64,000 nucleotides of DNA from Candidatus Poribacteria bacterium (GTDB taxonomy: Bacteria; Poribacteria; WGA-4E; PCPOR2b). The notes below the pieces were generated by a model. The model was not told the origin of the DNA and ran no database searches. It was given only the letters and a program-made list of their open reading frames with translations. The position numbers and the translations under genes were made by a program. Shown in pieces: positions 30,680-48,152 of the stretch. Location: NCBI GenBank assembly GCA_965215015.1, contig OZ244042.1, positions 1,472,001 to 1,536,000 of the forward strand. The letters run 5' to 3'. Position 1 is the first letter of the stretch. Each line of letters opens with the position of its first letter.

Positions 30680-31109
30680 AGAATCAGGATTCTCAAGATG
30701 GAAGGATTTTCGGGATAGCGAATGGCAATGGATAGAGTCAATCCTGTGAATCCTAAAATCCGGTAAAACCAGATTCAGACAAATGTCGCGATGATTTTGG
30801 AGGCTGAGGTGTAACTTGTCAGAATCAGGATCTTCAAGATGGAAGGATTTTCAGGATAGTGAATGGCAATGGATAGAGTCAATCCTGTGAATCCTAAAAT
30901 CCGGTAAAACCAGATTCAGACAAATGTCGCGATGATTTTGGAGGCTGAGGTGTAACTTGTCAGAATCAGGATTCTCAAGATGGAAGGATTTTCAGGATAG
31001 TGAATGGCAATGGATAGAGTCAATCCTGTGAATCCTAAAATCCAGTCAATCCCGATTCAGACAGAATGCGGCGATGATTTTGGAGGAGGGTGTGTAACTT
31101 GTCAGAATC
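30680..31109. repeat. Three tandem ~141-bp palindromic (MITE/REP-like) units
   Basis: Units start at 30680, 30821, 30962; bounded by ttgtcagaatc...gattcagacaa inverted ends with internal ggatt/aatcc arms. Confidence 0.85.
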
Positions 31110-32276: not shown

Positions 32277-33332
32277 TCAATTATTTTTTTTTATCGCGTC
32301 AACCAACTTATCTGCCCCAAAACGGATGACATCCGTGGCGGGTAATCCTGTCTCTTGCTCTATGGCTTCAACGGCTTGATGCGCTTCCGCTTCTGTGAGA
32401 TCAAAGCAATTGAGGCCAATTCCAATGACTTTGGCGGGTTTAATGGGGTTGGCAAGCATCTCATACTGACGGATTAATTCCGGTACCGGAGGCAGCGGCA
32501 CAGTGTATCGGGCAACAACCTTCCGTGAGGGTTGATGGCAGAAGATTATCGCATCGGGCATCGAGCCGTGCAGGAGGCTCAATGTAACACCCGAATAGCC
32601 GGGGTGCACTAGCGATCCCTGTCCTTCGACGATGAGGAGATCGCGAGCTCTTTTTGCCCCTTCGAGCACAATCTCCTCCGATGCCCCCGCTGTGAAGTCC
32701 GATACGACTGCGTCAATGGCAATTCCCCAACCGGAGATCATAATACCGTTCTGACCAGTCGCGCAAAACTCGGCGTCCAATCCACGATTCCGTGCGGTCT
32801 CTGCGAGCTCAATCGCTGTCACCATTTTGCCGATTCGACAATCCGATCCGACAGTCAGAATAACGGTTGGATCCACCTCGTCGGCTTTGCAGGTCGCAAT
32901 CGGCAGGTCTGCCGGCGGTTTACGCACATCCCACAGCATAACATTGTGGCGTTTGGCGAGATCAGCGAGTTGTGGATCCTCACTTAGGAATTGGTGGAGC
33001 CCACTCATGACATGCAGCCCGTGTCCGATAGCTTCCTTTAGAATTGCTATCCACGTTTCAGGCAGTTGACCCCCCGGCGGCGCAATGCCAATTGCGAGCA
33101 TCGTTGGATTCAATTCCATCGCTTCCGTAAGGCTACTAAGGACCGGAATTCCCTCCCCGATTTCAATGACTTCGCTAACATCTTTCCCGGCCTGTTCGCT
33201 GTCGATAACAGCAACGACATTTTCGGTATGGTAGCGCACTAATACTGTCGCTGCTTTTGATTCGAGGATGCCGAATGAACCTTCGGCGAGAATCGCCATT
33301 TTCTGTGCTTTGGGATTGAGTTGTTGTTCCAT
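32277..33332 (-). CDS. DUF1611 protein (D-glutamate N-acetyltransferase DgcN-like), copy 1
   Basis: LTVGSDCRIGKM, ATGQNG, IVEGQGSLVHPGYSGVTLSLLHGSMPD. Confidence 0.85.
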   Translation of the reverse strand: MEQQLNPKAQKMAILAEGSFGILESKAATVLVRYHTENVVAVIDSEQAGKDVSEVIEIGEGIPVLSSLTEAMELNPTMLAIGIAPPGGQLPETWIAILKEAIGHGLHVMSGLHQFLSEDPQLADLAKRHNVMLWDVRKPPADLPIATCKADEVDPTVILTVGSDCRIGKMVTAIELAETARNRGLDAEFCATGQNGIMISGWGIAIDAVVSDFTAGASEEIVLEGAKRARDLLIVEGQGSLVHPGYSGVTLSLLHGSMPDAIIFCHQPSRKVVARYTVPLPPVPELIRQYEMLANPIKPAKVIGIGLNCFDLTEAEAHQAVEAIEQETGLPATDVIRFGADKLVDAIKKNN

Positions 33333-33366
33333 ACGCCTTGTCCTTATTTTTTTTTGACAGTCTTTG

Positions 33367-33624
33367 TCATTGATACAACATTTCTTTGACTGAAAATTGT
33401 GCTTTTAATTGCAAGAGTTGCGCTTCTGGGAGCCCTGTAATTTCAGCGATGATCTCAATTTCCATTCCCTTGGCAAGCATCACCCTTGCGGATTCAATCT
33501 TTCCTTCCCTTTTGCCTTCGACCCGGCCTTCTCTTTTGCCTTCGACTCGACCTTCCCTTTTGCCTTCGACTCGACCGTTGTGAAAGATTTGTTGCTTCTC
33601 TTTTTCTAATGCGGTAATTAACAT
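33367..33624 (-). CDS. Stand-alone Rpn C-terminal small protein (RpnS-like antitoxin), copy 1
   Basis: Duplicate of the Rpn C-terminus from MLITALEKEK; RBS GAGG upstream. Confidence 0.7.
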   Translation of the reverse strand: MLITALEKEKQQIFHNGRVEGKREGRVEGKREGRVEGKREGKIESARVMLAKGMEIEIIAEITGLPEAQLLQLKAQFSVKEMLYQ

Positions 33625-33629
33625 CGTCC

Positions 33630-34640
33630 TTACCTCTTTTCTGAGGGAAGCTCTGCCTTCAACTGCAAGAGTTGCGCTTCTGGGAGCCCTGTAATTTCAG
33701 CGATGATCTCAATTTCCATTCCCTTGGCAAGCATCACCCTTGCGGATTCAATCTTTCCTTCTCTTTTGCCTTCGACTCTGCCTTCTCTTTTGCCTTCGAC
33801 TCTGCCTTCCCTTTTGCCTTCGACTCGACCTTCTCTTTTGCCTTCGACTCTGCCTTCTCTTTTGCCTTCGACCCGGCCGTTGTGAAAGATTTGTTGCTTC
33901 TCTTTTTCTAATGCGGTAATTAACATCGTCCTTACCTCCTCTTCATCTTGATAAATAGTTTCTAATGACTCATAGTCTCTAGCTGCAATCCGTCCGTGGA
34001 GTGCCAACTGCTTGAACCAATTTAAAAACAGACTCACTGCCCCCTTGTCCGCCTCCGATGAGAACAGATTCAGCAACTCTGTCTCCAGCACATCTACATC
34101 GTAATACGATTCCGCTAAAAACAGTGTAGAGACGATGTTTCGGATTTTCAAAAGGGCTTGCTGGCTGTATCGGTTTTCAGCAATAAGGAAATACTGAAAA
34201 TCTAACGCAAACGCGCCCAATGACGGCGTCTGCTCAATTAAATCAGAAAGGTTAATCGGTGCTGTCCAACGGTCTTCTCCATTGTATAGCACGATGGGGA
34301 AAACCGCGGGCAATTTTTTTACCTGTTTATGCTCGGCAACATAGTCCATGTAGAAGTTGGTAATGTAGTTGAGGGCTCGTAACGCCATGAACGGGTCGAC
34401 CGTGGATTGGAACTCAATGAGGATATAAATGTAAACCTCATGGTTAAGCAACTGAACTTTGTAAATCAAATCACTTTCGGTTTCCTTGTAGTGTTGGGAG
34501 ATGAATGACTTATCAAGGGTTTCACAAGTCGCAAAATCCAGGTGATTGACCCATTCTTGTGTAACAAAGGTCTCAATCAGTTGCCGGAATATGGTCTGAT
34601 TTGAAAAGAGTTTTTTGTATCCGCTGTCGTGAATGTTCAC
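33630..34640 (-). CDS. Rpn/YhgA family PD-(D/E)XK nuclease (Transposase_31), copy 1
   Basis: HDSGYKKLFS, ESDLIYKV, YILIEFQSTVD, PIVLYNG, EGKREG repeats; internal RBS + ATG at 33926. Confidence 0.9.
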   Translation of the reverse strand: MNIHDSGYKKLFSNQTIFRQLIETFVTQEWVNHLDFATCETLDKSFISQHYKETESDLIYKVQLLNHEVYIYILIEFQSTVDPFMALRALNYITNFYMDYVAEHKQVKKLPAVFPIVLYNGEDRWTAPINLSDLIEQTPSLGAFALDFQYFLIAENRYSQQALLKIRNIVSTLFLAESYYDVDVLETELLNLFSSEADKGAVSLFLNWFKQLALHGRIAARDYESLETIYQDEEEVRTMLITALEKEKQQIFHNGRVEGKREGRVEGKREGRVEGKREGRVEGKREGRVEGKREGKIESARVMLAKGMEIEIIAEITGLPEAQLLQLKAELPSEKR

Positions 34641-34678
34641 CGTTAGCCCCTCTCAAAGACTTGCGTCGGACGATTCAC

Positions 34679-35500
34679 CTATTCGCCCATTTGCTGACCG
34701 GTGGGTTTGTTGAGTCGATTCCCCTGAGCTTCATTCTGTATTTGTCGAGCAATGATTCTCACCGGCGTTGCTTTGGGCGGCACAACATCTGTATTGACGC
34801 GGTAGGTTCGGTCGTCTGTACCGCCGGGCAGCGGATGGTTGAAGATTGAATCTGGGTCACGGTACACCGCAATAATATTGTGAAACAGTTGGGTGGTGAA
34901 CTGGTTACGGATAAAACGTCCACCTGTGAATACCCAATGGGTTTGCCGCATCGGTTGTTTAGTCATCGCATTCCAGATTAATTCTTCAGCGCGATGCCAA
35001 ATGATCTGCTCACCACGTTCCCATTCAACCCATAGCTCGACTGGATCGCCTTCGGGGAGATGAGGGTCACCTTCCACAGTGAGGTTCATGCCCGGATTCA
35101 AGTTCAAGCGGAGAAGCGCAAGCTGGATGTGTATCGGTTCGGCATCGAGCATAAGGAGGCTTTCATGTGTTTTGCCCAGTTCGCCGACTGCAAAAAATTC
35201 GAGGATGGTCTCTGGACTGATAAGATTGACTTCACCGTTCATGACCACTTCATGTTTATTTACATCAACCGTGACAGTCCTCAATTGGTAGATACCATCG
35301 CCGATGTCGCGGATAGCGGAGGTTGGGTCAACTACCTCCGCGGACTCCGGACGGATGGCTAATTGCTGCGATGTGATATTGTTACCACGGTCCAGGTCCG
35401 CAATATCCTCATTTGGGTCAACAATGGCATAGAGTGTATGATCCCCATCCTCACTTGGGATCCAGTTAATCGCAGTAGTCGTTTCGTCGAGATTCTTGTT
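34679..35500 (-). pseudogene. 5'-truncated duplicate of the 3' end (CARDB tail + YdjY-like domain) of gene 45675-48152
   Basis: Matches 45675-46496; homology ends abruptly at 35500 with no proper start. Confidence 0.85.
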
Positions 35501-35506
35501 GAGGTA

Positions 35507-35980
35507 TTATTCTGCCTCAAGTGCCGTTAAATCCTCAACGCCAGCCATATCAGCTAGCATCTTTGCGTATTTTCTTAGGACTTCCTGTAACTGTCCTAAT
35601 TCGGTACGAAACCTTTCGCATTCACTCTCATCTTTGAATGCACCTGCTAAACTTAGTTTGTGCCATTCTGCTGTAAACGGTCTAATTACCTGATTCAAAA
35701 CTACAATAGCTATCTTTGTAAACTCGATACAATCCCTGCCATGAGTTTTGATAATCTCACGGGTTAGCCCAAAAAGTCTGTAAATGCTGTCAAGAGCAGT
35801 ACCCTCGTCCCCGTGTTCTGGTTTAAGATGTTGAGTTGCTACCCTAGTAAGCATTTCAATGTATAGTTCCCAAGCTGCATCTTTATCGGCAGGTTGTGGC
35901 TTCCATTCCATTTCCAAAAATGACACGTTAATCTTCAAAGAGGTCATATCCCAATTCTTAAGCCATTTTTTCCATTTCAT
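35507..35980 (-). CDS. Unknown helical protein coupled to TIR gene
   Basis: ATG 35980 overlaps TIR stop (ATGA), RBS AGGAGG; AAWELYIEMLTRVATQ...ALDSIYRLFGLTRE...LNQVIRPFTAEWH. Confidence 0.75.
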   Translation of the reverse strand: MKWKKWLKNWDMTSLKINVSFLEMEWKPQPADKDAAWELYIEMLTRVATQHLKPEHGDEGTALDSIYRLFGLTREIIKTHGRDCIEFTKIAIVVLNQVIRPFTAEWHKLSLAGAFKDESECERFRTELGQLQEVLRKYAKMLADMAGVEDLTALEAE

Positions 35981-36537
35981 GATTTGCCTCCTAATTTTGG
36001 TCGTCCCGGACACTGACGGTTATACTTAAACCTCTTTCTTGGATTCACAATAAGATGGTTTTTTGTAGTCCTCGCAAGAAAAGCACTATGGATTGCGTTA
36101 GACAACGTATCTTTTCTAGCCGGATAGTCAATCAATCTCGCGTAACAATCCTCTTGTTTCAAATTCAGCTTTAACCGATTTGGGAAGGACGCATTTCTTG
36201 TGTAACTTGGTAATTTCACTCCAAGTAAACCATTTGGTGTTACAGTTTCACCGCTTCTAAGAGAGGATTGGAGTTCCCAATCAACATATCGCCGTGCCCA
36301 CGTACACCTACCCATAAGGACAATCGTTACAGTTGAATCCCGCAAATAAAGCTCTCTGATACGGCTCATCACATAATCCGTATCATCACTGTTAATAATA
36401 TCATCTTCCCTTCTTATGCCCAAACCCCGTGTAATGAACACATTTCTTTCATCACCAAAGGTTTGAACAAAATCATCGACTTGGCGTTGGTCATCGTGAT
36501 GATAGGAAATAAAGACCTTATGTCGGGTAGTATTCAT
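35977..36537 (-). CDS. TIR domain protein, Thoeris ThsB/DUF1863-like
   Basis: HKVFISYHHDD, IRELYLRDSTVTIVLMG, RRYVDWEL (catalytic Glu), PNGLLGV; strong RBS. Confidence 0.85.
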   Translation of the reverse strand: MNTTRHKVFISYHHDDQRQVDDFVQTFGDERNVFITRGLGIRREDDIINSDDTDYVMSRIRELYLRDSTVTIVLMGRCTWARRYVDWELQSSLRSGETVTPNGLLGVKLPSYTRNASFPNRLKLNLKQEDCYARLIDYPARKDTLSNAIHSAFLARTTKNHLIVNPRKRFKYNRQCPGRPKLGGKS

Positions 36538-36673
36538 TTGTCATGCCCTCCTTTCACTGAGAAATCATCGGCAAGAAAAAGATTGAATAGCATAACATAT
36601 TAAAAAAACAAGCGTCGATCATATATCAGCGCGTCCACTCTGCTTATGCTTGAGAACCGTTAGTCAACAAAAT

Positions 36674-37352
36674 TCAATCCCTAGCATATGGAGAATTAGG
36701 GTAATGCTCTATCAGTAGTTGTTGCCCTAGTTCTTCGCAAGTTGCCTTGAAATATGGTGTGATACTCTCACTTGATATTCCATGTGTTTCTGCTAAAAAC
36801 TCCCCTAGTGTTTTCATTGAGTTTGCATTGAAATTAACAAAGGGTGTACGACTACCCCGCCGTGTGGCTGTTGGCACTTGGTCGCGGTGGAGTTCTTCCA
36901 CATTCTCAATAAAATCACACAGTAAAAGCTGCTCATGGTAGGCTATATAATTCAGGGGGCAACCCTCACCCCAATAGTATGCAACGCCGCGTAGTTGTCG
37001 AAGGCGTCACGCTCCCACTGTCCAATATCCTGCCACCGAAGTGATTTCCTGTTAGCTTGTCGTGCGATATAATCAATACGGCGTTGGCTGTATATTGGGG
37101 TCTGAGTGCATTTGTATTCTAGCAGATAAACTCTGTCTGGATTCTGAGATTCCACGACAAAAAATCCGGTGCATAACGGACATGACGGGCGGTTTCATTC
37201 CGAACAAAACGAAGGCTCTCCCTGACGTTCTCCGGTATATGTGTCTCATAACCAAACTCAACGTGATATAGAGAGGAAAACTTATCCCAAATACCGCCCT
37301 TTACTGTGTCAATTAAGAGGTTAGCCTTACTCGACCTTTCCTCAAATTTCAT
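36674..37352 (-). pseudogene. Frameshifted PD-(D/E)XK nuclease-like gene
   Basis: ATG 37352 overlaps upstream stop; MKFEER...RYAPDF, frameshift in T-run (~37160), ...VYLLEYKC...GVRVA, frameshift in C-run (~36957), ...GSRTPFVNFN...YARD*. Confidence 0.65.
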
Positions 37353-37858
37353 AGTCCTGTACCACCTATCATAGTGTTCCGGTTTAGATTGCAAGCAACC
37401 ATATCCCACTGAGCTACTATAACCTGTCGTGGCCTCTTGCCCTTTTCCCAATGGTATTCCAGTACATCACGTCTTTGATAGTCCTGTAACAAAGAAGCAA
37501 GTGTCGAAGAAACTCCCAAAGGAGAAATCAAAAATGAGTAAAGTGGTTGGGCAATTCTACTGTAGCCTAAAAGTTGGGAAAGGTGCGCCGGTGTTAGGCT
37601 GGTGTTCTTACATTCTACAAAAGCTAGAGAAGTAGCTTCCTCTGCATGGTGAACGAATCCAACAATATCAACTCGAATATCCCATGTAACCTGCTCCGCT
37701 GGAAATCTACCCTTGCTATATGTTCTCAAAAAACGGGAAATTGGGGTGTGTGGCAGGTCATAAACATCAACATCAGCATTTCGGAAGCAACTTCTAAGAA
37801 AATCCTCTAACCAGCGGCAAACATCAGGATACATTTCTCCTTCAGATCCATACTTCAT
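37349..37858 (-). CDS. Small PD-(D/E)XK endonuclease
   Basis: SEGEMY, IRVDIVGF, FVECK, LSQLLGY (QxxxY motif of Mrr/NucS/RecB-like nucleases). Confidence 0.7.
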   Translation of the reverse strand: MKYGSEGEMYPDVCRWLEDFLRSCFRNADVDVYDLPHTPISRFLRTYSKGRFPAEQVTWDIRVDIVGFVHHAEEATSLAFVECKNTSLTPAHLSQLLGYSRIAQPLYSFLISPLGVSSTLASLLQDYQRRDVLEYHWEKGKRPRQVIVAQWDMVACNLNRNTMIGGTGL

Positions 37859-38807
37859 CTTCCTCTACTTCCTCCAGTAGGGCTTCATGCTTATTAAAAT
37901 CCCATAACTCTTGTTGCATCATCTCAGGTCTACGAGGGCAACCTAGCTTTTTGCAGATTTGCCAGTAAGCGTTGAAATGTTGTCCTTTTAGGCGGTCGTC
38001 CAGTCTTTCATCGCTTTCCCGTTTATCCTTCGGCTTCCGTTTCCTCAACTGTTTTCTGCCAACACAAGGATTATAAGACTTCTTCGGGTGATGCTCCCTG
38101 TCGTGTTCGATAAATTCTCTCAAGATGGCTTGCTTGTGAGGCAAAGAAAAACCGATTTCTCCGAATGGCACGGCAAAAATGTTAATCTGGTGTTCTCGAA
38201 AGTCCCTTCCCATGTTTGGGTGTCCCCAAGTGATTAGCTGAACGGGTATGGTTAAATGTTCTTCCAGTATCGTACAAAGCTGGACGGGCATTTCCCAATT
38301 TGTCTGATAATTCAGTACATCAAGTCGGACACGATGTGCGCCGTCAACATAGCGGTTCGCGTGTCTGATATTTCCGGCAACATCAGCAAAGCCCCTTATG
38401 TATTCTCGCTTCCAGTCCTTTGGTACTTCTGGAGAAAAGAATATTTCCGGCACTAAAAAATGCTCGTATCCCGTGCGTTCCGCAGTGTGCATTAAGATAT
38501 TCCGCCACACCATTGTATTTCTGAAAAAGCGTAATACGAGAACAACCTTGTTGTCTCTATTTACAACGCTAACATCAGCACCCGTCAAGTCTAAAATGCG
38601 CTCTTGTATCTGTTGTAACCCAAGGAGTATAGAAGTGTTAGTATCAAAAGTCTCGGTTATACCATCTACTGCAAGAGATTGGTAGGGAAACTCAATAATA
38701 ACCTGCCTTGTGCCACCACTTTCTGATATTCTCCCCCTTGCTGTTATCAAACCAAGCAAGTAAGCGACATCAGCGTCAATATAGTCTATAACTTCGATTA
38801 GGCTCAC
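37842..38807 (-). CDS. LAGLIDADG-fold protein lacking catalytic acidic residues
   Basis: VAYLLGLITARG and REYIRGFADVAG two-motif arrangement; C-terminal Cys/His cluster and basic patch. Confidence 0.6.
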   Translation of the reverse strand: MSLIEVIDYIDADVAYLLGLITARGRISESGGTRQVIIEFPYQSLAVDGITETFDTNTSILLGLQQIQERILDLTGADVSVVNRDNKVVLVLRFFRNTMVWRNILMHTAERTGYEHFLVPEIFFSPEVPKDWKREYIRGFADVAGNIRHANRYVDGAHRVRLDVLNYQTNWEMPVQLCTILEEHLTIPVQLITWGHPNMGRDFREHQINIFAVPFGEIGFSLPHKQAILREFIEHDREHHPKKSYNPCVGRKQLRKRKPKDKRESDERLDDRLKGQHFNAYWQICKKLGCPRRPEMMQQELWDFNKHEALLEEVEEDEVWI

Positions 38808-38818
38808 TGGATATACTC

Positions 38819-39655
38819 CTACGGCTTTTGAAAAATTAGGATAAATTCATGGATTTTATTGATACGAAACACGCTCGGATAGCCAAGTGGACGCAAGTTA
38901 TTGTATTCCTGTCCTCTATCCCATATAATCATGTCGTCAAAAATAAAGCCAATATCCTCCATGAATCGAGAAATATCCATGTGATATGGGTAAAAGCGAT
39001 TCTTTTTTCGTAAATCCATGACAATGACACAACAGTAGCTTTTGGGCTTCATAACCTCATAGACCTGCTCGAAAATCTTACTAAGTTCTAGCAGGAATTT
39101 TTCATAATCACGAATCTTCCCTAAGTCTGCCTCTGTCTCTCCGTAATCACGCTGTTCCTTATAATCAGCCGTCCGCTTTTCCAGAAGAATATCCCAATAT
39201 GGAGGTGATGTAATCACCATATCCACACTATTTGGAGACACATACTTACACAGTTCTCTACTATCAGCAACATGGACTTTTATATCGGTTGGACCTCCAA
39301 ACGGAATCGTCTGACTAACTCTACCTTCAGCGATTTCGGCAAACTCTGGAGAAATCTCTATCCCTATAGCGTCCTTTCCTAATTCTTTGGCGGCCATGAG
39401 GGTAGAACCAACTCCAACAAAAGGGTCAAATACTAAGCGAGCTTTTTTATTAGTGAAGCATTCTACCAGACGGCAAGCCAACGCACTCGGAAACATAGCA
39501 GGGTGTTTTAAGTCTGTTTCTTCCCGTGTTTTCCTTACATCATTCCAAACTGAGATTGAGTACCTTAACCACGTCTTTCCATCTAATTCATTTCCTCGCT
39601 TGAGTTCAGGTGTTTCCTTTTCCTCCGTACTAGCCGTGATTCTTTTTTTAGGCAT
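38819..39655 (-). CDS. DNA amino-methyltransferase (m4C/m6A), alpha-type motif order
   Basis: KHPAMFP, VFDPFVGVGST (motif I) before ITSPPY (motif IV), IIWDR, HEFILIFQK. Confidence 0.9.
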   Translation of the reverse strand: MPKKRITASTEEKETPELKRGNELDGKTWLRYSISVWNDVRKTREETDLKHPAMFPSALACRLVECFTNKKARLVFDPFVGVGSTLMAAKELGKDAIGIEISPEFAEIAEGRVSQTIPFGGPTDIKVHVADSRELCKYVSPNSVDMVITSPPYWDILLEKRTADYKEQRDYGETEADLGKIRDYEKFLLELSKIFEQVYEVMKPKSYCCVIVMDLRKKNRFYPYHMDISRFMEDIGFIFDDMIIWDRGQEYNNLRPLGYPSVFRINKIHEFILIFQKP

Positions 39656-39782
39656 TGCTTGATTCCTCCAATAGTCAATACTTTTTACTTGTAATGCAAT
39701 CTAACCCTAAAAGCGAACCAATATTATACCACTCTAACACTTCACCTATCATTTGCTTTACCGTACCTCCCACGAGGAAAGC

Positions 39783-39883
39783 CCCATAGACTTCTCCCGT
39801 AAGAAACCGTAGATAAACCAAAAACGGTTATTTTTCTAAAGATGCTGGCAAACCAGACACTTTACAGGGGAGAAGTCTATGGG
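39783..39883. mobile_element. ~100-bp MITE with 16-bp perfect terminal inverted repeats
   Basis: cccatagacttctccc ... gggagaagtctatggg. Confidence 0.65.
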
Positions 39884-39924
39884 ACGAAAATTCCTCAACA
39901 TGGTCGGAATTTCAAAAATTCAGT

Positions 39925-40089
39925 CCATCTCCATACCCCCAGGCACACCACAGACGGATTTTCGCCATCAACGGTTCACTTATTGCGCCGGACCGGAGAA
40001 GTTCTAATACACTGTCCATCACCGGCAGGTATCGGAGCTCCAAAATCGCGGCGGTCCCATTTTGGAGCCGGGGGCATTTCGCCACAGTT
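39925..40089. repeat. Chimeric relic of 10324-10446 and 20182-20226
   Basis: Direct sequence matches to the Gfo/Idh/MocA gene and the PhyH gene, joined at ATCG. Confidence 0.9.
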
Positions 40090-42202
40090 AAGGCCTAAGG
40101 CGTTTTAACGAATTAGAACACCACTTTCGTACTATGCCGCTTCTGTCATTCAGTCCGTTGAGGAGCACATCAAGAGTTCTTTTATCTCCAACTTGACCAC
40201 ATTGCCCTAGGGCTTTGGCAGCAGCAGCTCGAGCATGATGATAGGAGTCATTTTCTAGGACTCCAATGAGTGAAAACAGTGATGCTTTATCACCTATTGA
40301 TCCAAGAGCTTCAGCTGCTGCTGTTCGAACAATTCCGTCCTCATCTTTTAAAGCATTGCATAAAGGTTGAACTACTGAAACATGTTTTAATTTTCCCAAA
40401 GTTCTAGGTGCCTTGCGTCGAATTTTCTGATCTGGCGATTGTAACTCAAATATTGCAGATTGTAGGAGTTGCTTTTCGTCAACAAGTAATACCCTAATAG
40501 ATTCTTCGTGTTTTTGAATCAACGAAGAAATGATGTTGTTAACCTTTTCTTCAAGATTATCTTCAAGCAGTTTGATCAACACTTTATAGGCGGCGGTTGA
40601 ATCAATTTTGACCAAGGCACGGATGGCATGAATTCTTACGTCTGCGTTTGAATCCGATTTCGCCATGTCAAGCAGTCTTTGCCAATATTTCTTTTCAAAC
40701 TGACATAAAGCTCTGACCGACATGACCCGAAATCTTGCAAGATGGTTATAGGTTAACCGTACAAACATCAGTTCATCATCCGGAGTCACACCTCCATCAA
40801 TTAGTCCTTTTAGGATGCTCACTTGAGTATTCAAAGGTATCTTTCGCCTTTGAGCTTGGTTGAAAACATTTCTGAGATAGTTCCTTGATTTAATCTCACC
40901 GATTGCACCCAAAGCAATATATGCGGTATTACAGACCCTTGAATTAGTATTTTTCGTTAGGCTTTTAAGTATTTCAATTGCTGAATCTTTCTCCTTGATA
41001 TTTAACTTTACAGCAGCATTCTTTAATGATGTGATAGCACGCAATTGTGCATTGGTTGATAATGGTTCTTTAATGGCTTTACAGAGAAAGAAAAATAATC
41101 TCTCAGGTGCTATATCATTCAAAGTGCTTAAAACTATATAAGGAAGTGAGCTTTTTTTGGCTGTATTTAGAATATGCAGTAAAAGTGAAACGGCAACTTC
41201 ACTGTCTTGTAAAAGCCTTAAGAGGCTGCAACATAATTTTAGATTCGCGCTCGCAAGTTCAGCAATATATGGCAATATACATGAGTTGTCCAGAAAGAAA
41301 AGTGCTTTTAACCGTATTTGGGCTTCTTTTCGTCGTTTTTTGTGATCGCTTTTCAGTTCGCTAATTAACCACTCAACAGAATCTTCCTCAAGTTCGCCAT
41401 AAGAAAATTCAATCTCAATGGTGCTTTCGCTTGTTTCTCCATTGGTGAGATTGTCATCAACATTAGGTTCATCTTCAATTTCACTAGGCCCTTCTGGATG
41501 AATAATAATAACTTTAGATTTCTTCCGGTATTTGGACGCCGTTACAACTCGTTCGCGCAAATTGTTCAACTCTGCAAATTTAATATCTTGTCCTCGTGGG
41601 GCAAAACGTTTGCCAATTTGTGGAGCGGATACAGATGATTGTTTGATTAGCGAATGTTTTCTCTTTTGTTTTAGAACTTGGTTGACCGTTACAACAGACT
41701 CTGTAACTTCCAAGCGTTCCTTAACTTGTTCAATCATTTCTGCTGTCAGGATTTCCGCATTAAACCAATAGACATACATATCGTCAAGAATTTGTCGAAT
41801 GGCCATCCGATCAGTAACTTCTATTCCATATTCAACATTTGATTTTAGGCCGGATGGGGTTAGGTTAGAAGAAGTTACAATTGCTGAATTCTCATCAAAG
41901 ATATAAACCTTCGCATGGAGATTGGATATACATTTTACTGTTACCTCCAACCCGGATACCTCTACAAGCTGCAGCAGTTTTTCAAACGCTTCCAAATCTG
42001 AGGATCCGTCGATTAAATCTTGAATTCTAACCCGCGTCAAAATTTGAACCGATACGTTAGGATGATGTTTCGATTGTAAAGTCTCACATAGAAGACTAGC
42101 AACAGGATATTTGATGTAGGGACTGGATATGAATAAGGATTTTTCAACTGCATGGACTTTTGAGAAAAAGTAATTCTCCCACGGTGGTTGAATATATTGC
42201 AT
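40088..42202 (-). CDS. PLD-family nuclease domain fused to HEAT/PBS-lyase repeats
   Basis: LFISSPYI, NLHAKVYIFD, TSSNLT...NVEYG (single HxK motif); C-terminal VRTAAAEALGSIGD, RAAAAKALG repeats. Confidence 0.8.
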   Translation of the reverse strand: MQYIQPPWENYFFSKVHAVEKSLFISSPYIKYPVASLLCETLQSKHHPNVSVQILTRVRIQDLIDGSSDLEAFEKLLQLVEVSGLEVTVKCISNLHAKVYIFDENSAIVTSSNLTPSGLKSNVEYGIEVTDRMAIRQILDDMYVYWFNAEILTAEMIEQVKERLEVTESVVTVNQVLKQKRKHSLIKQSSVSAPQIGKRFAPRGQDIKFAELNNLRERVVTASKYRKKSKVIIIHPEGPSEIEDEPNVDDNLTNGETSESTIEIEFSYGELEEDSVEWLISELKSDHKKRRKEAQIRLKALFFLDNSCILPYIAELASANLKLCCSLLRLLQDSEVAVSLLLHILNTAKKSSLPYIVLSTLNDIAPERLFFFLCKAIKEPLSTNAQLRAITSLKNAAVKLNIKEKDSAIEILKSLTKNTNSRVCNTAYIALGAIGEIKSRNYLRNVFNQAQRRKIPLNTQVSILKGLIDGGVTPDDELMFVRLTYNHLARFRVMSVRALCQFEKKYWQRLLDMAKSDSNADVRIHAIRALVKIDSTAAYKVLIKLLEDNLEEKVNNIISSLIQKHEESIRVLLVDEKQLLQSAIFELQSPDQKIRRKAPRTLGKLKHVSVVQPLCNALKDEDGIVRTAAAEALGSIGDKASLFSLIGVLENDSYHHARAAAAKALGQCGQVGDKRTLDVLLNGLNDRSGIVRKWCSNSLKRLRP

Positions 42203-42250
42203 TTAACACTCTCCAAATTGGTTGATTTTTTTACTATAGTAAACACAAGA

Positions 42251-42435
42251 TAGGACTTACGCAGTTGAACATTCAAGTCTTGTAGTTCGGCTATTCCGCG
42301 CCGCAGGACACCACTTCTAACGTCCGATGAATTGGACAACTACAGTAGGTTTTGGTTTGTAATAGGGCGATTTATCAACCTAACCTCCGAACGCGCAATG
42401 AAAGCACGACTACAAATTCAAGTGCGTAACTCCTA
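42251..42435. mobile_element. ~185-bp MITE-like element
   Basis: Ends taggacttacgcagttgaa / ttcaagtgcgtaactccta; REP-like ttgtagt...actacaa interior. Confidence 0.6.
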
Positions 42436-42485
42436 AGAAGAAATAAATAGGCTATTTTTCGCAGATATGCTATATTATTGAGATT

Positions 42486-43300
42486 ATGGCACATTCATCA
42501 GATTTACGCACACGCGTCCTTCAATTCATAGAAAATGGGGGCAGTCAAACAGAAGCCGCAAGACGCTTCAACATTGCCCGTGCTGCGATTTACCAATGGC
42601 TCAACGCACCGGATCCTCTCGCGTGTGGAAACCCCGGGACCCGACACCCAAGACAACTTGATCCAACAGCACTGGTTGAACATGTCAAGGCATATCCTGA
42701 CCAAACCCTTGACGAACGCGCCAAACACTTTGGGGTTTCAAAGTCCTGTGTGGCCTATGGACTGCGAAAACTGGAATACACTCGTAAAAAGACAACTGGA
42801 TATAAAGGAGTAATGTCCACAAAAACAGGCAGCCTATCAGCAATGGAAGCTTCTGACAACACCTTAATTTACGTTGACGAGACCGGTTCCCAGATGAAGC
42901 CTTCAGAAGTTATGGCTATGCCCCCGGGGCGAACCCGTCTATGGCTGGATACCCAGCCAAAAAACGCGCACCATGATTTTGATAGCGGCACGACTGAATA
43001 ATCGGTTGACTGCCCCCAAGCTCTTATCGGGGAGTTGTAATACCGACAGGTTCAATACATGGCTTGAACAGGAGTTATGCCCCCTTTTGGATGCCAATAG
43101 TGTGGTGATAATGGATAATGCACGGATTCACAAGACCCCTCAGACCCGAAAATTGATTAAAGGTCGTGGTGCGGCGTTGGTATACTTGCCCCCCTTTATT
43201 CGCCCGATTATAATCCCGTTGCACACGATTTACCAATCTCAAACGGTGCCGGTCATACAATGCGGATGAGCCTCTTAAGGAGATTATCAATATGTATTGT
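42486..43300 (+). mobile_element. Degenerate IS630-family transposase
   Basis: MAHSSDLRTRVL HTH, YVDETG, IMDNARIHK, frameshifted YSPDYNPVA (third catalytic Glu lost); several frameshifts. Confidence 0.85.
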
Positions 43301-43321
43301 TAATTATAGAATCTACTATGA

Positions 43322-44377
43322 TTATTGAAACCTCTGAATCGCGTCAACCAACTTATCTGCCCCAAAACGGATGACATCCGTGGCGGGTAATCCTGTCTCT
43401 TGCTCTATGTCTTCAACAGCTTGATGGGCTTCTGCTTCGGTGAGATCAAAGCAGTTCAGGCCAATCCCAATGACTTTGGCGGGTTTAATGGGGTTGGCAA
43501 GTATCTCATACTGACGGATTAATTCCGGCACCGGAGGCAGCGGCACAGTGTATCGGGCGACAATCTTCCGTGAGGGTTGATGGCAAAAGATTACCGCATC
43601 GGGCATCGAACCGTGCAGGAGGCTCAGTGTAACGCCCGAATAGTCGGGATGCACTAGCGATCCCTGTCCTTCAACGATGAGGAGATCACGGGCCCTTTTT
43701 GCCCCTTCAAGCACAATCTCCTCCGATGCCCCCGCTGTGAAGTCCGATACCACTGCGTCAATGGCAATTCCCCAACCGGAGATCATGATACCGTTCTGAC
43801 CAGTCGCGCAAAATTCGGCGTCCAATCCACGATTCCGTGCGGTCTCTGCGAGCTCAATCGCTGTCACCATTTTGCCGATTCGACAATCCGATCCGACAGT
43901 CAGGATAACGGTTGGATCCACTTCGTCAGCTTTGCAGGTCGCAATCGGCAGGCCTGCCGGCGGTTTACGCACATCCCACAGCATAACATTGTGGCGTTTG
44001 GCGAAATCAGCGAGTTGTGGGTCATCACTCAGGAATCGGTGGAGCCCACTCATGACATGCAGCCCGTGTCCGATAGCTTCCTTTAGAATTGCTATCCACG
44101 TTTCAGGCAGTTGACCCCCCGGCGGCGCAATGCCAATTGCGAGCATCGTTGGATTCAATTCCATCGCTTCCGTAAGGCTGCTAAGGACCGGAATTCCCTC
44201 CCCGATTCCAATGACTTCGCTGACATCTTTCCCGGCCTGTTCGCTGTCGATAACAGCAACGACATTTTCGGTATGGTAGCGCACTAACACTGTCGCTGCT
44301 TTTGATTCGAGGATGCCGAATGAACCTTCGGCGAGAATCGCCATTTTATGTGCTTTGGGATTGAGTTGTTGTTCCAT
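43322..44377 (-). CDS. DUF1611 protein (DgcN-like), copy 2
   Basis: Near-identical to 32277-33332; HPDYSG instead of HPGYSG; different last residues. Confidence 0.85.
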   Translation of the reverse strand: MEQQLNPKAHKMAILAEGSFGILESKAATVLVRYHTENVVAVIDSEQAGKDVSEVIGIGEGIPVLSSLTEAMELNPTMLAIGIAPPGGQLPETWIAILKEAIGHGLHVMSGLHRFLSDDPQLADFAKRHNVMLWDVRKPPAGLPIATCKADEVDPTVILTVGSDCRIGKMVTAIELAETARNRGLDAEFCATGQNGIMISGWGIAIDAVVSDFTAGASEEIVLEGAKRARDLLIVEGQGSLVHPDYSGVTLSLLHGSMPDAVIFCHQPSRKIVARYTVPLPPVPELIRQYEILANPIKPAKVIGIGLNCFDLTEAEAHQAVEDIEQETGLPATDVIRFGADKLVDAIQRFQ

Positions 44378-44410
44378 ACGCCTTGTCCTTATTTGTTTTG
44401 ACAGTCTTTG

Positions 44411-44644
44411 TCATTGATACAACATTTCTTTGACTGAAAATTGTACTTTTAATTGCAAGAGTTGCGTTTCTGGCAGCCCTGTAATTTCAGCGATGAGCTC
44501 AACCTCCATTCCCTTGGCAAGCATCCCCCTTGCGGATTCAATCTTCCCTTCCTTTTTGCCTTCGACCCGGCCTTCCCTTTTGCCTTCGACTCGGCCGTTG
44601 TGATAGATCTGTTGCTTCTCTTTTTCTAATGCGGTAATTAACAT
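44411..44644 (-). CDS. Stand-alone RpnS-like small protein, copy 2
   Basis: MLITALEKEK...; two GRVEGK(R/K)E units. Confidence 0.7.
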   Translation of the reverse strand: MLITALEKEKQQIYHNGRVEGKREGRVEGKKEGKIESARGMLAKGMEVELIAEITGLPETQLLQLKVQFSVKEMLYQ

Positions 44645-44649
44645 CGTCC

Positions 44650-45636
44650 TTACCTCTTTTCTGAGGGAAGCTCTGCCTTCAACTGCAAGAGTTGCGCTTC
44701 TGGGAGCCCTGTAATTTCAGCGATGATCTCAATTTCCATTCCCTTGGCAAGCATCACCCTTGCGGATTCAATCTTCCCTTCCTTTTTGCCTTCGACCCGG
44801 CCTTCCCTTTTGCCTTCGACCCGGCCTTCTCTTTTACCTTCGACCCGGCCTTCCCTTTTACCTTCGACTCGACCGTTGTGATAGATCTGTTGCTTCTCTT
44901 TTTCTAATGCGGTAATTAACATCGTCCTTACCTCCTCTTCATCTTGATAAATAGTTTCTAATGACTCATAGTCTCTAGCTGCAATCCGTCCGTGGAGTGC
45001 CAACTGCTTGAACCAATTTAAAAACAGACTAACTGCCCCCTTGTCCGCCTCCGATGAGAACAGATTTAGCAATTCTGTCTCTAGCACATCTACATCGTAA
45101 TACGATTCCGCTAAAAACAGTGTAGAGACGATGTTTCGGATTTTCAGAAGGGCTTGTTGGCTGTATTGGTTTTCAGCAATAAGGAAATACTGAAAATCTA
45201 ACGCAAACGCGCCCAATGATGGCGTCTGCTCAATTAAATCGGAAAGGTTAATCGGTGCTGTCCAGCGGTCCTCTCCATTGTATAGCACGATGGGGAAAAC
45301 CGCGGGCAGTTTTTTTACCTGTTTATGCTCGGCAACATAGTCCATGTAGAAGTTGGTTATGTAGTTGAGGGCTCGTAACGCCATGAAGGGGTCAACCGTG
45401 GATTGGAACTCAATGAGGATATAAATATAAACCTCATGATTAAGCAACTGAACTTTGTAAATCAAATCACTTTCGGTTTCCTTGTAGTGTTGGGAGATGA
45501 ATGACTTATCAAGGGTTTCACAAGTCGCAAAATCCAGGTGATTGACCCATTCTTGTGTAACAAAGGTCTCAATCAGTTGCCGGAATATGGTCTGATTTGA
45601 AAAGAGTTTTTTGTATCCGCTGTCGTGAATGTTCAC
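44650..45636 (-). CDS. Rpn/YhgA family nuclease, copy 2
   Basis: As copy 1, with one fewer 8-aa repeat; internal start at 44922. Confidence 0.9.
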   Translation of the reverse strand: MNIHDSGYKKLFSNQTIFRQLIETFVTQEWVNHLDFATCETLDKSFISQHYKETESDLIYKVQLLNHEVYIYILIEFQSTVDPFMALRALNYITNFYMDYVAEHKQVKKLPAVFPIVLYNGEDRWTAPINLSDLIEQTPSLGAFALDFQYFLIAENQYSQQALLKIRNIVSTLFLAESYYDVDVLETELLNLFSSEADKGAVSLFLNWFKQLALHGRIAARDYESLETIYQDEEEVRTMLITALEKEKQQIYHNGRVEGKREGRVEGKREGRVEGKREGRVEGKKEGKIESARVMLAKGMEIEIIAEITGLPEAQLLQLKAELPSEKR

Positions 45637-45674
45637 CGTTAGCCCCTCTCAAAGACTTGCGTCGGACGATTCAC

Positions 45675-48152
45675 CTATTCGCCCATTTGCTGACCGGTGG
45701 GTTTGTTGAGTCGATTCCCCTGAGCCTCATTCTGTATCTGTCGAGCAATGATTCTCACCGGCGTTGCTTTGGGCGGCACAACATCTGTATTGACGCGGTA
45801 GGTTCGGTCGTCTGTACCGCCGGGCAGCGGATGGTTGAAGATTGAATCTGGGTCACGGTACACCGCAATAATATTGTGAAACAGTTGGGTGGTGAACTGG
45901 TTACGGATAAAACGTCCACCTGTGAATACCCAATGGGTTTGCCGCATCGGCTGTTTAGTCATCGCATTCCAGATTAATTCTTCAGCGCGATGCCGAATAA
46001 TCTGCTCACCACGTTCCCATTCAACCCATAGCTCGACTGGATCGCCTTCGGGGAGATGAGGGTCACCTTCCACAGTGAGGTTCATACCCGGATTCAAGTT
46101 CAAGCGGAGAAGCGCAAGCTGGATGTGTATCGGTTCGGCATCGAGCATAAGGAGGCTTTCATGTGTTTTGCCCAGTTCGCCGACTGCAAAAAATTCGAGG
46201 ATGGTCTCTGGACTGATAAGATTGACTTCACCGTTCATGACCACTTCATGTTTATTTACATCAACCGTGACAGTCCCCAATTGGTAGATACCCTCGCCGA
46301 TGTCGCGGATAGCGGCGGTTGGGTCAATTGCCTCCGCGGACTCCGGACGGATGGTTAATTGCTGCGATGTGATATTGTTACCACGGTCCAGGTCCGCAAT
46401 ATCCTCATTTGGGTCAACAATGGCATAGAGTGTATGATCCCCGTCCTCACTTGGGATCCAGTTAATCGCAGTAGTCGTTTCGTCGAGGTTCTTGTTAAAG
46501 AGTACCTCTTGAGAATCAATCTTTTTTCCACCCCGCGCCGGAGCACCATCGTAAAAATCCACCGGAACCGTTGACTCAATTGGCGCACCGGTATTTGTCA
46601 GTGTGACACTGATTCGCACAGGGTCGCCGACGCGCGGCGAAGGTGGGGAGTAACGAAGGCTACGGTTTACCGCACCGAGGTCTGGTTGTATCGGCTTCGG
46701 CAACGAACGTGTCAGAAACATCAGCGCAAAGCAGGTTGTTGGGAAATAGTCCTCGTGATCGATCCAGCGTCCATCGGGTTGCTGCTCAGCAACGAACATA
46801 CTAGCTATGTCCTGATACCAATCATGTCCGACAAGCCTATCTAGTTTCGGGGGGATATCGCAGAAGCGTTGTAATGTCACAAAATAGTAGTGATGCCAAG
46901 AATTTGCGCCGGGATTTCGGGTGAGCGACCAGTGTTTCTGGATCCACTGCAACCCCTTCTGTACTTGTGGGTCCTCAACAGGAACGCCAAATGCGCGGAG
47001 CGTCCAAAGTCCCGTTGCTGTCATGCTACCGTAGACACCTTCCGCCCAAGGCGAACCGTGCTCCACCCGATTATACAGCCAGCCGCCGGTTTCTGTCTGA
47101 TTGCTACGAATCCACTCCTCGGCGCGTTTCCAAGTCTCTGAGGGAACTTCGAGTCCCCACTGTTTTGCAGCGTAAAGGGCATAGACCACCCAGTTAAAGT
47201 GCGCTCCATCGGCTGTCGCACCGTAGCCCCAACCGCCAAAATCTCTTGGATCTGAAAACTCCTCACCGCCAAATGGTAATTGACTTTTAACGAGCTGATT
47301 CACCGAAAACTGAGCGCGTTTGCGATATTCCGGCAGGTTGGTAGCGACGAGTGTTGGCAAAACGATAGAGTGAACGTAGACATCAAAGGTATTCCAATCC
47401 TGCTGCATGAGAAAATCCAACCCCTGTTGCATCGCCGGATCTGATGCAGGAACCCCCGCCGACATTAAAGCGAGCAATGCAAGCGCAGTTTCTTGCTTGC
47501 TATCTTCCCCCAGATCCCATGCTGGACCGGGCAAAAGATCTTCAGACAGCCCTTTAAGGGTTGCGCCGCAGATGACGCAGATTGAGATAAGCTGGTTTTC
47601 GGAACCACACTGCAAACAGGTGCGGTTATGTTTTCCCTGCTGGGCTCTTATCCACGCTACCCCTCTTTGAATTGCGTTTTGGATCTGCTCAGGGGTTGCC
47701 TTGGGAAACGTACGCCGCGTTGCAGTAATTGAGGTGTGAGCAATGTTATTGCTGCGATTGGCTTCCTGAATCTCTTTGTCGTCCCCAGCCGGGTTGACGA
47801 CAGCATACACTGCCGTTTTCCCAGGCGGTGGTCGCCACTGTGTTTTGACCCTTTTTAATTGACCGACCCCCAACCCCAAAATCACATCTCTGCACATAAT
47901 CTGCAGCGGGGTTGTCCCCGGTTCGCCTTCGTAAAGATTGACCACCAAATCCTCATTCATCGTCGGAGCAACCTGTCCCACGTTTTTAACGATGATGTAA
48001 ACTGTGATTTCCTCTCCCTCAAGCGGAGTAGGGTTGGAAAACACAAAACTTGTGCTATCTATCTCAAAGTCCGGTAGTGGTATTTGTTGTGCCTGTGCGT
48101 GAAATGGGATGAGGAAGGGTATCAGAGCGAAAAGGAAACGAAATCTATACAT
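45675..48152 (-). CDS. Exported CARDB + prenyltransferase/squalene-cyclase-like alpha/alpha barrel + CARDB + YdjY-like domain protein
   Basis: Signal MYRFRFLFAL (start 48152); CARDB VVNP..EIQEANRSNN; QW-like repeats GGWGY, NQTETGGW, QQPDGRW; CxxC..CxxC insert; LEFFAVGELGKTHES. Confidence 0.7.
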   Translation of the reverse strand: MYRFRFLFALIPFLIPFHAQAQQIPLPDFEIDSTSFVFSNPTPLEGEEITVYIIVKNVGQVAPTMNEDLVVNLYEGEPGTTPLQIMCRDVILGLGVGQLKRVKTQWRPPPGKTAVYAVVNPAGDDKEIQEANRSNNIAHTSITATRRTFPKATPEQIQNAIQRGVAWIRAQQGKHNRTCLQCGSENQLISICVICGATLKGLSEDLLPGPAWDLGEDSKQETALALLALMSAGVPASDPAMQQGLDFLMQQDWNTFDVYVHSIVLPTLVATNLPEYRKRAQFSVNQLVKSQLPFGGEEFSDPRDFGGWGYGATADGAHFNWVVYALYAAKQWGLEVPSETWKRAEEWIRSNQTETGGWLYNRVEHGSPWAEGVYGSMTATGLWTLRAFGVPVEDPQVQKGLQWIQKHWSLTRNPGANSWHHYYFVTLQRFCDIPPKLDRLVGHDWYQDIASMFVAEQQPDGRWIDHEDYFPTTCFALMFLTRSLPKPIQPDLGAVNRSLRYSPPSPRVGDPVRISVTLTNTGAPIESTVPVDFYDGAPARGGKKIDSQEVLFNKNLDETTTAINWIPSEDGDHTLYAIVDPNEDIADLDRGNNITSQQLTIRPESAEAIDPTAAIRDIGEGIYQLGTVTVDVNKHEVVMNGEVNLISPETILEFFAVGELGKTHESLLMLDAEPIHIQLALLRLNLNPGMNLTVEGDPHLPEGDPVELWVEWERGEQIIRHRAEELIWNAMTKQPMRQTHWVFTGGRFIRNQFTTQLFHNIIAVYRDPDSIFNHPLPGGTDDRTYRVNTDVVPPKATPVRIIARQIQNEAQGNRLNKPTGQQMGE

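Follow-up and report, generated by a model that had tools for sequence, protein, structure and literature searches.

A candidate restriction-modification system combining a LAGLIDADG-fold protein without catalytic acids and a minimal PD-(D/E)XK nuclease

Introduction

The folds found in restriction enzymes include the phospholipase D (PLD) and half-pipe folds. Restriction enzymes are also tied to homing endonucleases, through the PD-(D/E)xK, GIY-YIG and beta-beta-alpha-metal motifs and not through LAGLIDADG (PMC3384342). In its available part, the same review treats LAGLIDADG proteins outside homing only in the case of WhiA (PMC3384342). Here we analyze a three-gene locus in a stretch of 64,000 nucleotides (the window) from a Candidatus Poribacteria bacterium (assembly GCA_965215015.1, contig OZ244042.1, positions 1,472,001 to 1,536,000 of the forward strand), which encodes a methyltransferase (M), a protein with a LAGLIDADG fold (B) and a PD-(D/E)XK nuclease (C). 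The trio is probably a Type II restriction-modification system, in which the nuclease is split into a catalytically dead LAGLIDADG reader and a PD-(D/E)XK cutter. A two-subunit restriction enzyme with a domesticated homing-endonuclease fold had been proposed from the DNA of the window before this analysis (hereafter the original prediction), and the folds of the two proteins, the linkage of the three genes, natural B-C fusions and an exchange of the methylase now support it.

Several described systems share part of this arrangement, and the nearest of them in function are heterodimeric restriction enzymes and modular enzymes of the FokI type. In the heterodimeric Type IIS/IIT restriction enzymes BtsI and BsrDI two catalytic sites are distributed over two subunits (PMC1950550). 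Together with R.BspD6I (small subunit, PDB entry 2p14; large subunit, 2ewf), these enzymes resemble the proposed B-C enzyme in combining a large site-finding subunit with a small PD-(D/E)XK cutter, and in having relatives with both parts in one polypeptide. However, their large subunit is a PD-(D/E)XK nickase with readers of its own, whereas B is a LAGLIDADG protein without the catalytic residues of its fold. The modular Type IIS enzymes FokI (2fok), PaqCI (8em1) and BpuSI (3s1s) likewise consist of a reader and a non-specific PD-(D/E)XK cleavage module, to which C is structurally similar (Z-scores 6.1-7.9), and the FokI-type organization, including a long linker, recurs in fused B-C proteins. 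The readers of the FokI-type enzymes are winged-helix or other domains, in contrast to the LAGLIDADG saddle proposed here, and the two parts are mostly encoded by separate genes in the B-C family.

On the side of the LAGLIDADG proteins, B resembles WhiA (DUF199; 3hyi, 8dy7), a domesticated double LAGLIDADG protein without metal-binding acids, which B matches with a Z-score of 13.8. WhiA from T. maritima has Arg and Gly at the metal-binding positions, compared with Arg and Ala in B (PMC3384342). WhiA differs from B in carrying a helix-turn-helix (HTH) domain at its C-terminus and in its role as a conserved housekeeping regulator in Gram-positive bacteria; instead of an HTH match, B has a Cys/His cluster, and it is encoded by a mobile gene tied to a methylase and a nuclease. 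With I-DmoI, I-Tsp061I, PI-PfuI and PI-SceI, B has in common its fold and a packed pair of LAGLIDADG helices that end in Gly. Unlike the monomeric LAGLIDADG homing endonucleases, it lacks the catalytic acids (in all of 91 sequences), an intron or intein context and a Pfam LAGLIDADG match. The same design principle, a dead LAGLIDADG binder with a PD-(D/E)XK cutter, underlies an engineered fusion of catalytically inactive I-SceI, which serves to bind DNA, with R.PvuII as cutter (PMC3258161). That protein is man-made and its PvuII part keeps its own specificity, whereas the B-C family is natural, widespread and paired with methylases.

Neither B nor C matched a known system in Pfam, PADLOC, NCBIfam or, by sequence, the PDB, REBASE lying outside this search. 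In the literature, as far as the text was available and with REBASE and supplements likewise outside the search, we found no paper on a LAGLIDADG-fold component of a restriction-modification system. The system would thus be of a known kind, while its endonuclease architecture, as judged from sequence, appears to be undescribed.

Results

Organization of the locus

The three genes lie on the reverse strand in the order M, B, C. The gene for M (38819..39655, 278 amino acids) is separated by 11 nt from that for B (37842..38807, 321 amino acids, GTG start; the proposed DNA-recognition subunit), which overlaps by 17 nt with the gene for C (37349..37858, 169 amino acids; the proposed cleavage subunit). 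The tight coupling described in the original prediction, an 11-bp gap followed by a 17-bp overlap, was reproduced from the coordinates of the open reading frames, and every motif it had quoted was located: the two LAGLIDADG-like helices of B (VAYLLGLITARG at residues 14-25, EYIRGFADVAG at residues 135-145), the SPPY of the amino-methyltransferase at residues 150-153 of M, and the ECK of C at residues 82-84, with D64 upstream and Q95..Y99 downstream. With abutting or overlapping reading frames in this order, expression would yield the methylase first, and then B and C together. At an E-value of at most 0.001 we found 403 homologues of B, all unnamed or annotated as ‘hypothetical’, and 188 close homologues of C. 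Because of these homologues, and because both genes are under strong purifying selection, B and C are not chance reading frames.

Protein B has a LAGLIDADG fold without catalytic acids

Protein B belongs to no Pfam (E ≤ 1), PADLOC or NCBIfam family; specifically, the Pfam models LAGLIDADG_1, _2 and _3 gave no match at E ≤ 1. Sequence and profile searches of the PDB returned chance-level matches only (E at least 0.24 over the searches with B and C). The AlphaFold2 (AF2) model of B (predicted local distance difference test score, pLDDT, 82.6) has the double-motif LAGLIDADG topology, with two packed helices ending in Gly. A Foldseek search of the PDB with this model gave 131 matches at E ≤ 0.001, and those listed are all LAGLIDADG-fold proteins, among them I-Tsp061I (E 6.9e-7), the bI3 maturase, I-AniI, I-DmoI, PI-SceI and WhiA. 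Structural alignment with VIA-align gave Z-scores of 15.4 for PI-PfuI (root-mean-square deviation, rmsd, 2.9; 189 residues aligned) and PI-SceI, 15.2 for I-Tsp061I, and 13.8 for I-DmoI and WhiA. The LAGLIDADG fold that had been read from the two helices alone is thus recovered by the model and by both structural comparisons (VIA Z-scores 15.4-13). As a lead only, neighbors of B in the ESM Atlas carry LAGLIDADG_3 (scores 0.94 and 0.92).

In LAGLIDADG endonucleases the penultimate positions of the two motifs hold the metal-binding acids. These positions in B, predicted to be Arg and Ala, are R24 and A144. To place them in the family we used 91 B sequences. Besides that of the window, they come from genome and metagenome loci, from a plasmid and from phages, and one is a duplicate (L100, the same as L013). 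Position 24 is Arg in 86 of them, Lys in two, Asn in two and a gap in one; position 144 is Ala in 72, Thr in 11, Gly in seven and Ser in one. Asp or Glu occurs at neither position in any sequence. Since both metal-binding acids are lost, B cannot cut by the mechanism of homing endonucleases.

The C-terminal part of B consists of the Cys/His cluster that the original prediction had pointed out, followed by a disordered acidic tail. The cluster is well kept in the 91 homologues (C248 in 88, H277 in 91, C285 in 89 and C290 in 89), with the qualification that it is missing in a distant Bacillota branch, and the four residues probably form a structural zinc site. We detected no HTH, WhiA Pfam or NCBIfam match in B. 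The gene was never found in an intron or intein; it always stands between a methylase and C, with flanks that are not common across lineages.

Protein C is a minimal PD-(D/E)XK nuclease

Like B, protein C matched no family in Pfam, PADLOC (E ≤ 1) or NCBIfam, and only chance-level entries in the PDB by sequence and profile. At E ≤ 0.001, an exhaustive profile search with C retrieved 317 cluster representatives; with few exceptions they are 150-190 residues long. We compared the AF2 model of C (pLDDT 75.5) with representative structures using VIA-wide. The best matches are BsaWI (Z 8.4), AF1548 (8.2) and PaqCI (7.9), followed by the NucS-type repair endonuclease 2vld (7.3), MspJI (6.9), Can2 (6.7), the small subunit of BspD6I (6.6; rmsd 3.9, 123 residues aligned), BpuSI (6.2) and FokI (6.1), where Z-scores of 7-8 can reflect a common arrangement. 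Nearly all of the 50 listed matches are PD-(D/E)XK nucleases, and many of the matched domains (those of PaqCI, MspJI, the BspD6I small subunit, FokI and BpuSI) are cleavage modules that need another domain or subunit for recognition. Foldseek retrieved MspJI and PaqCI, with a best E-value of 1.8e-3.

At each of the positions D64, E82, K84, Q95 and Y99 the residue is kept in 98 of 99 C homologues, and the one other sequence has a gap. Across the family, the near-invariant nuclease site of C thus stands in contrast to the dead LAGLIDADG site of B. In the model, D64 lies just ahead of the strand formed by residues 65-70, and E82 and K84 lie at the end of the strand formed by residues 77-83. We regard as solid the assignment of C, from this model, to a minimal PD-(D/E)XK fold (an alpha-beta-beta-beta-alpha-beta core with the catalytic D...(D/E)-x-K motif on strands 2 and 3), because the match list is uniform and D64, E82 and K84 are kept. 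The nuclease with a D..ECK motif that had been recognized in the sequence therefore stands.

The methyltransferase

Protein M belongs to PF01555 (N6_N4_Mtase; Pfam E 1.2e-34, in two stretches). Among the Type II methyltransferase models of PADLOC, MTase_II matches best (E 1.6e-45). In the alignment with the structure 2zie (E 8.7e-29), residues 126-247 of M correspond to residues 23-138 of the chain, and residues 13-118 to residues 181-282. Because the two blocks swap order, M is circularly permuted relative to this beta-class relative, with the half carrying the S-adenosylmethionine (AdoMet) motif FDPFVGVGS (residues 76-84) first and the half carrying the catalytic SPPY (residues 150-153) second. 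The next matches in the PDB are the cytosine-N4 methyltransferases 8s9m and 8s9n (E 1e-15).

The AdoMet motif (FxGxG-type) and the catalytic motif of the adjacent methyltransferase are intact and conserved. Among 93 loci in which a methylase was matched, 88 retain SPPY, a count that takes in the window's own locus and two duplicates; four of the other alignments end short of the motif, and one has SPPC. The SPPY form indicates N4-cytosine rather than N6-adenine methylation, and judged by this motif the mark set by M is probably N4-methylcytosine.

Linkage and distribution of the trio

The original prediction implied that the three genes should co-occur elsewhere, and they do. A scan of one genome per species gave 58 loci. 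At least nine phyla are represented, among them Poribacteria, Chloroflexota, Acidobacteriota, Armatimonadota, Myxococcota, Gemmatimonadota, Latescibacterota and Zixibacteria, and one locus is archaeal. M adjoins B in 56 of these loci (tblastn), and the two misses, L053 and L055, begin with B at a contig edge. C also adjoins B in 56 of 58; here one miss (L016) ends 54 nt past B and the other (L049) is a decayed copy that lacks C and has incomplete M and B genes. When open reading frames of at least 70 residues from the 58 loci were clustered, only M, B and C were widely common. Apart from antisense shadow reading frames, which formed the next clusters, no other gene extended beyond 15 loci; after these came flanks common to about 14 Poribacteria loci.

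A metagenome scan with P0372, a fused protein described below, added 40 loci, 34 of them with a methylase; of the misses, five are contig starts and one (L082) has a truncated B. The two nuclease genes are closely coupled throughout. We compared their spacing in 102 loci, counting the window's own locus and two duplicates and using estimated starts for C. The two genes overlap in 59 of these loci, are 0-30 nt apart in 36, 31-100 nt apart in two and more than 100 nt apart in one, and are fused in four.

Among close relatives of the host the cassette is rare. B is present in 0 of 19 genomes of the same genus. Beyond the genus, 2 of 21 genomes from the family and order have it, and in one of these two (G022) the open frame spans only 230 residues and matches residues 96-317 of B. 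Such patchy spread among relatives is typical of mobile defence genes. Given that none of the 19 same-genus genomes has it, the cassette has probably not been present long enough to shape the genome. About 14 Poribacteria genomes (L001-L014) keep the cassette beside the same chromosomal neighbors; its context in the window is a different one, a repeat-flanked island. A decayed copy, L017 (the same as L101), has a methylase match that ends at residue 221, a B that begins at residue 96 and an intact C, and looks as if one deletion had joined the methylase and B.

Natural fusions of B and C

The database protein P0372 (557 residues) is a fusion of the two nuclease proteins, with B at residues 3-336 (hhalign probability 100, E 6e-45) and C at residues 407-555 (E 7e-17). 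B and C also share one open frame in four of the 40 metagenome loci (L060, L061, L062 and L063, the last one cut at its 5' end), and are separate in the other 36. These four proteins are 42-49% identical to P0372, and because of this low identity the fusions represent a diverged clade and not an assembly error. They had escaped a word-based search for longer C-containing proteins, in which none scored, and surfaced only in the exhaustive profile search. In the fused forms the LAGLIDADG positions are still Arg and Ala, the D, E and K of the C part are retained, and a Lys/Glu-rich linker of about 70 residues joins the two parts. All four fusion loci have a PF01555 methylase downstream on the opposite strand (convergent), whereas in split loci it lies upstream and is co-directional with B and C. 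The link to a methylase thus outlasts the rearrangement. The fused clade has an additional feature that the split forms lack, a zinc-ribbon-like CxxC...CxxC insertion in LAGLIDADG domain 1. Two other candidates were left uncounted: P0102 (491 residues), taken to be a frameshift product, in which the middle reads out of frame and the C-like part can no longer be aligned close to its C-terminus, and P0349 (212 residues), which looks like a deletion chimera.

The fusions bear on an explanation in which C alone is a small homodimeric Type IIP enzyme, and B is an accessory protein (a controller or regulator, a stabilizer or an antitoxin-like inhibitor) and not the reader. We consider this unlikely, since fusions with a long linker fit a reader-cutter enzyme better than they fit a regulator. 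Moreover, B is the larger protein, is as conserved as C and is never missing beside C in uncut loci; Pfam detects no HTH in it; and the nearest folds of C include many cleavage modules without recognition functions. An accessory role would nevertheless agree with the existence of very small self-sufficient PD-(D/E)XK restriction enzymes such as R.PvuII, and WhiA, matched by B at Z 13.8, is a precedent for a dead LAGLIDADG regulator (PMC3384342). The operon also contains no controller-type C-protein, a gap that a regulator would fill.

A plasmid and phage branch with a different methylase

Searching plasmids and phages with B (tblastn) yielded matches of 27-29% identity on two L. plantarum plasmids and in two phages. 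In the plasmid locus L102 (on a plasmid of 6.5 kb) and the phage loci L103 and L104, a gene of about 290 codons overlaps a downstream gene of about 166 codons. The B-like gene of the plasmid matches the B profile (hhalign E 9e-32), and the C-like genes of the plasmid and one phage match the C profile (E 1e-16 and 2e-20). In all three loci the pair is preceded by a 700-residue fused methylase, which consists of an EcoRI-methylase-like domain (E ~1e-118) and a C5-cytosine methylase domain (E ~1e-72). What stays constant is therefore the B-C pair, while its methylase can be exchanged, and this is how a restriction endonuclease would be expected to behave. A two-domain methylase producing N6-methyladenine and C5-methylcytosine is the usual arrangement in Type IIS systems whose sites are asymmetric (Alw26I, Eco31I, Esp3I), and by analogy such a fused methylase would suit a monomeric asymmetric reader. 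The plasmid pair lies beside a YafQ-type toxin gene, and one phage pair beside an excisionase gene.

The genomic island around the trio

In the window, a 3.2-kb direct repeat (32293-35500 and 43338-46496; 95.4% identity over 3208 nt) brackets a 7.8-kb low-GC island that holds the trio. The original prediction had spoken of an AT-rich island; the lower GC content is real (0.427 for the trio and 0.420 for the island at 35501-43337, compared with 0.484 elsewhere in the window), but the contrast is modest. Each copy of the repeat contains a DUF1611 gene, a reading frame of 201 residues without a family, and a YhgA-like gene (Transposase_31, Rpn-type) that has a region of tandem ‘GRVEGKRE’ repeats inside it.

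A 704-residue protein with an N-terminal PLD domain (PLDc_2, E 6e-14) and C-terminal HEAT repeats (E 1.5e-35) is encoded 432 nt upstream of the trio (40088-42202, reverse strand). It is DrmC-like in PADLOC and has a weak match to the N-terminal domain of the restriction endonuclease NgoFVII. On the other side of the trio, a gene for a ThsB-like Toll/interleukin-1 receptor (TIR) protein (35977-36537, reverse strand; PF08937, E 8e-19) is overlapped by 37 nt by a gene for a 168-residue protein without a family (35507-36013, reverse strand). The PLD-HEAT and TIR genes recur in none of the 58 genome loci; the former may be a separate defence gene, and the TIR gene and its 168-residue neighbor possibly form a two-gene TIR defence module. 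At the right edge of the island lies an IS630-type transposase in two overlapping reading frames (42486-43269, forward strand; HTH_Tnp_IS630, E 1.5e-27; DDE_3, E 3e-12), apparently frameshifted and truncated. Outside the island, a 141-nt unit is present in three tandem copies at 30680-31102, the second and third being 97% and 77% identical to the first.

Around the trio, a weak promoter-like site (39723..39752, reverse strand; 10 of 12 hexamer matches, extended -10 TG) lies about 70 nt upstream of the start of M, and a weak terminator-like hairpin (37164..37181, reverse strand) about 170 nt downstream of C. In scans of the region neither type of site was in excess over shuffled sequences (four promoter-like sites against 5.7 in shuffles, four terminator-like sites against 3.0 expected). 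The whole window contains no Rfam family at gathering score.

The setting of the cassette bears on a further explanation, in which the trio is a selfish mobility or addiction module and not a host defence: B and C would cut a long rare site for the spread or retention of the cassette, and M would be the antidote. The LAGLIDADG ancestry of B suggests long sites, and the position of the trio between repeats and an IS630 remnant, the plasmid copy beside a toxin-antitoxin gene and a phage copy beside an excisionase gene all have the appearance of mobility. However, the flanking genes differ between lineages, and therefore no common homing target is visible, while the 14 Poribacteria loci that keep one chromosomal position and its flanks suggest long vertical retention. 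We consider a selfish module very improbable. It also overlaps with the restriction-modification reading, post-segregational killing being known for ordinary restriction-modification systems (PMC3384342).

Discussion

We propose the following mechanism for the trio as a Type II restriction-modification system. M would mark the host copies of a short site, and methylation would block cutting there. B, a monomeric pseudo-dimeric saddle, would bind the unmethylated site without cutting it. C, a bare catalytic module with no room for a reader of its own, would be held at the site by B and make the cut. In the split forms B would hold C non-covalently, and in the fused forms the Lys/Glu-rich tether of about 70 residues would take over this role. 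Both strands could be cut either by dimerization of C, as in FokI, or by sequential nicking. We infer the reading of DNA by B, the contact between B and C in the split form, the blocking effect of the methyl mark and the mode of two-strand cutting from the folds, active sites, linkage, fusions and methylase exchange described above. A prediction of the B-C complex, made without controls, gave ipSAE values of 0.19 and 0.09, below the mark of 0.32, and speaks neither for nor against binding.

Several considerations weigh against this reading. The saddles of homing endonucleases usually read 14-40 bp, which far exceeds a useful restriction site or the reach of a 278-residue methylase. Restriction enzymes about as small as C, such as R.PvuII, can be self-sufficient. 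C finds moderate structural matches, with Z-scores that do not exceed 8.4 and a best Foldseek E-value of 1.8e-3. Conservation in B is highest in domain 2, where sheets and loops have a mean column identity of 0.72, compared with 0.48 in domain 1. In particular, the AF2 model places W194-GHPN198 and E205-H-Q207 in the hairpin that strands beta3 and beta4 form in domain 2, and these residues reach at least 95% conservation in the 91 sequences, including the branches with different methylases. These residues are not specificity determinants, because they are constant where the methylase differs. On the basis of its conservation pattern, this GHPN/EHQ cluster may dock C, hold the backbone or be a second active site. 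Finally, WhiA illustrates that the reading of DNA can be lost from a dead LAGLIDADG domain (PMC3384342), and DNA binding by B is itself inferred.

The last of the three roles considered for the conserved cluster corresponds to an explanation in which B is active through a non-canonical site (H196, N198, E205, H206 and Q207), so that B and C would each cut one strand, as the subunits of BtsI, BsrDI and BspD6I do. Conservation of the polar cluster across branches with different methylases would be expected of such a site, the division of two catalytic sites over two subunits has a precedent in BtsI and BsrDI (PMC1950550), and double-strand cutting with a single C would be accounted for. The cluster, however, lies away from the ends of the LAGLIDADG helices, where the active site of this fold resides (PMC3384342), could equally be a docking or backbone-contact surface, and belongs to a protein in which no known nuclease motif or Pfam family was found. 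We therefore judge a catalytic B to be quite unlikely.

If the domain-2 cluster does not set specificity, domain 1 of B is the likelier seat of specificity. We speculate, as a tentative extension of the reader-cutter reading and with clearly less confidence than we attach to the restriction-modification system as such, that the B-C proteins are natural restriction enzymes which use the LAGLIDADG saddle purely as reader. The site read would be asymmetric or of unusual length, and a FokI-like PD-(D/E)XK module, separate or tethered, would be positioned to cut beside it. In such enzymes the variable domain 1 of B would set the specificity, and the GHPN/EHQ residues of the invariant domain 2 would dock C.

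If the proposed architecture is correct, it would bring a new fold into restriction enzymology and constitute a sixth structural solution for restriction enzymes, a natural counterpart of the engineered nucleases built on dead meganucleases. Homing endonucleases would then also have been domesticated a second time, independently, by cells and their mobile elements. As natural reader and cutter parts that occur both split and fused, B and C would then be informative on how site readers join nuclease modules.

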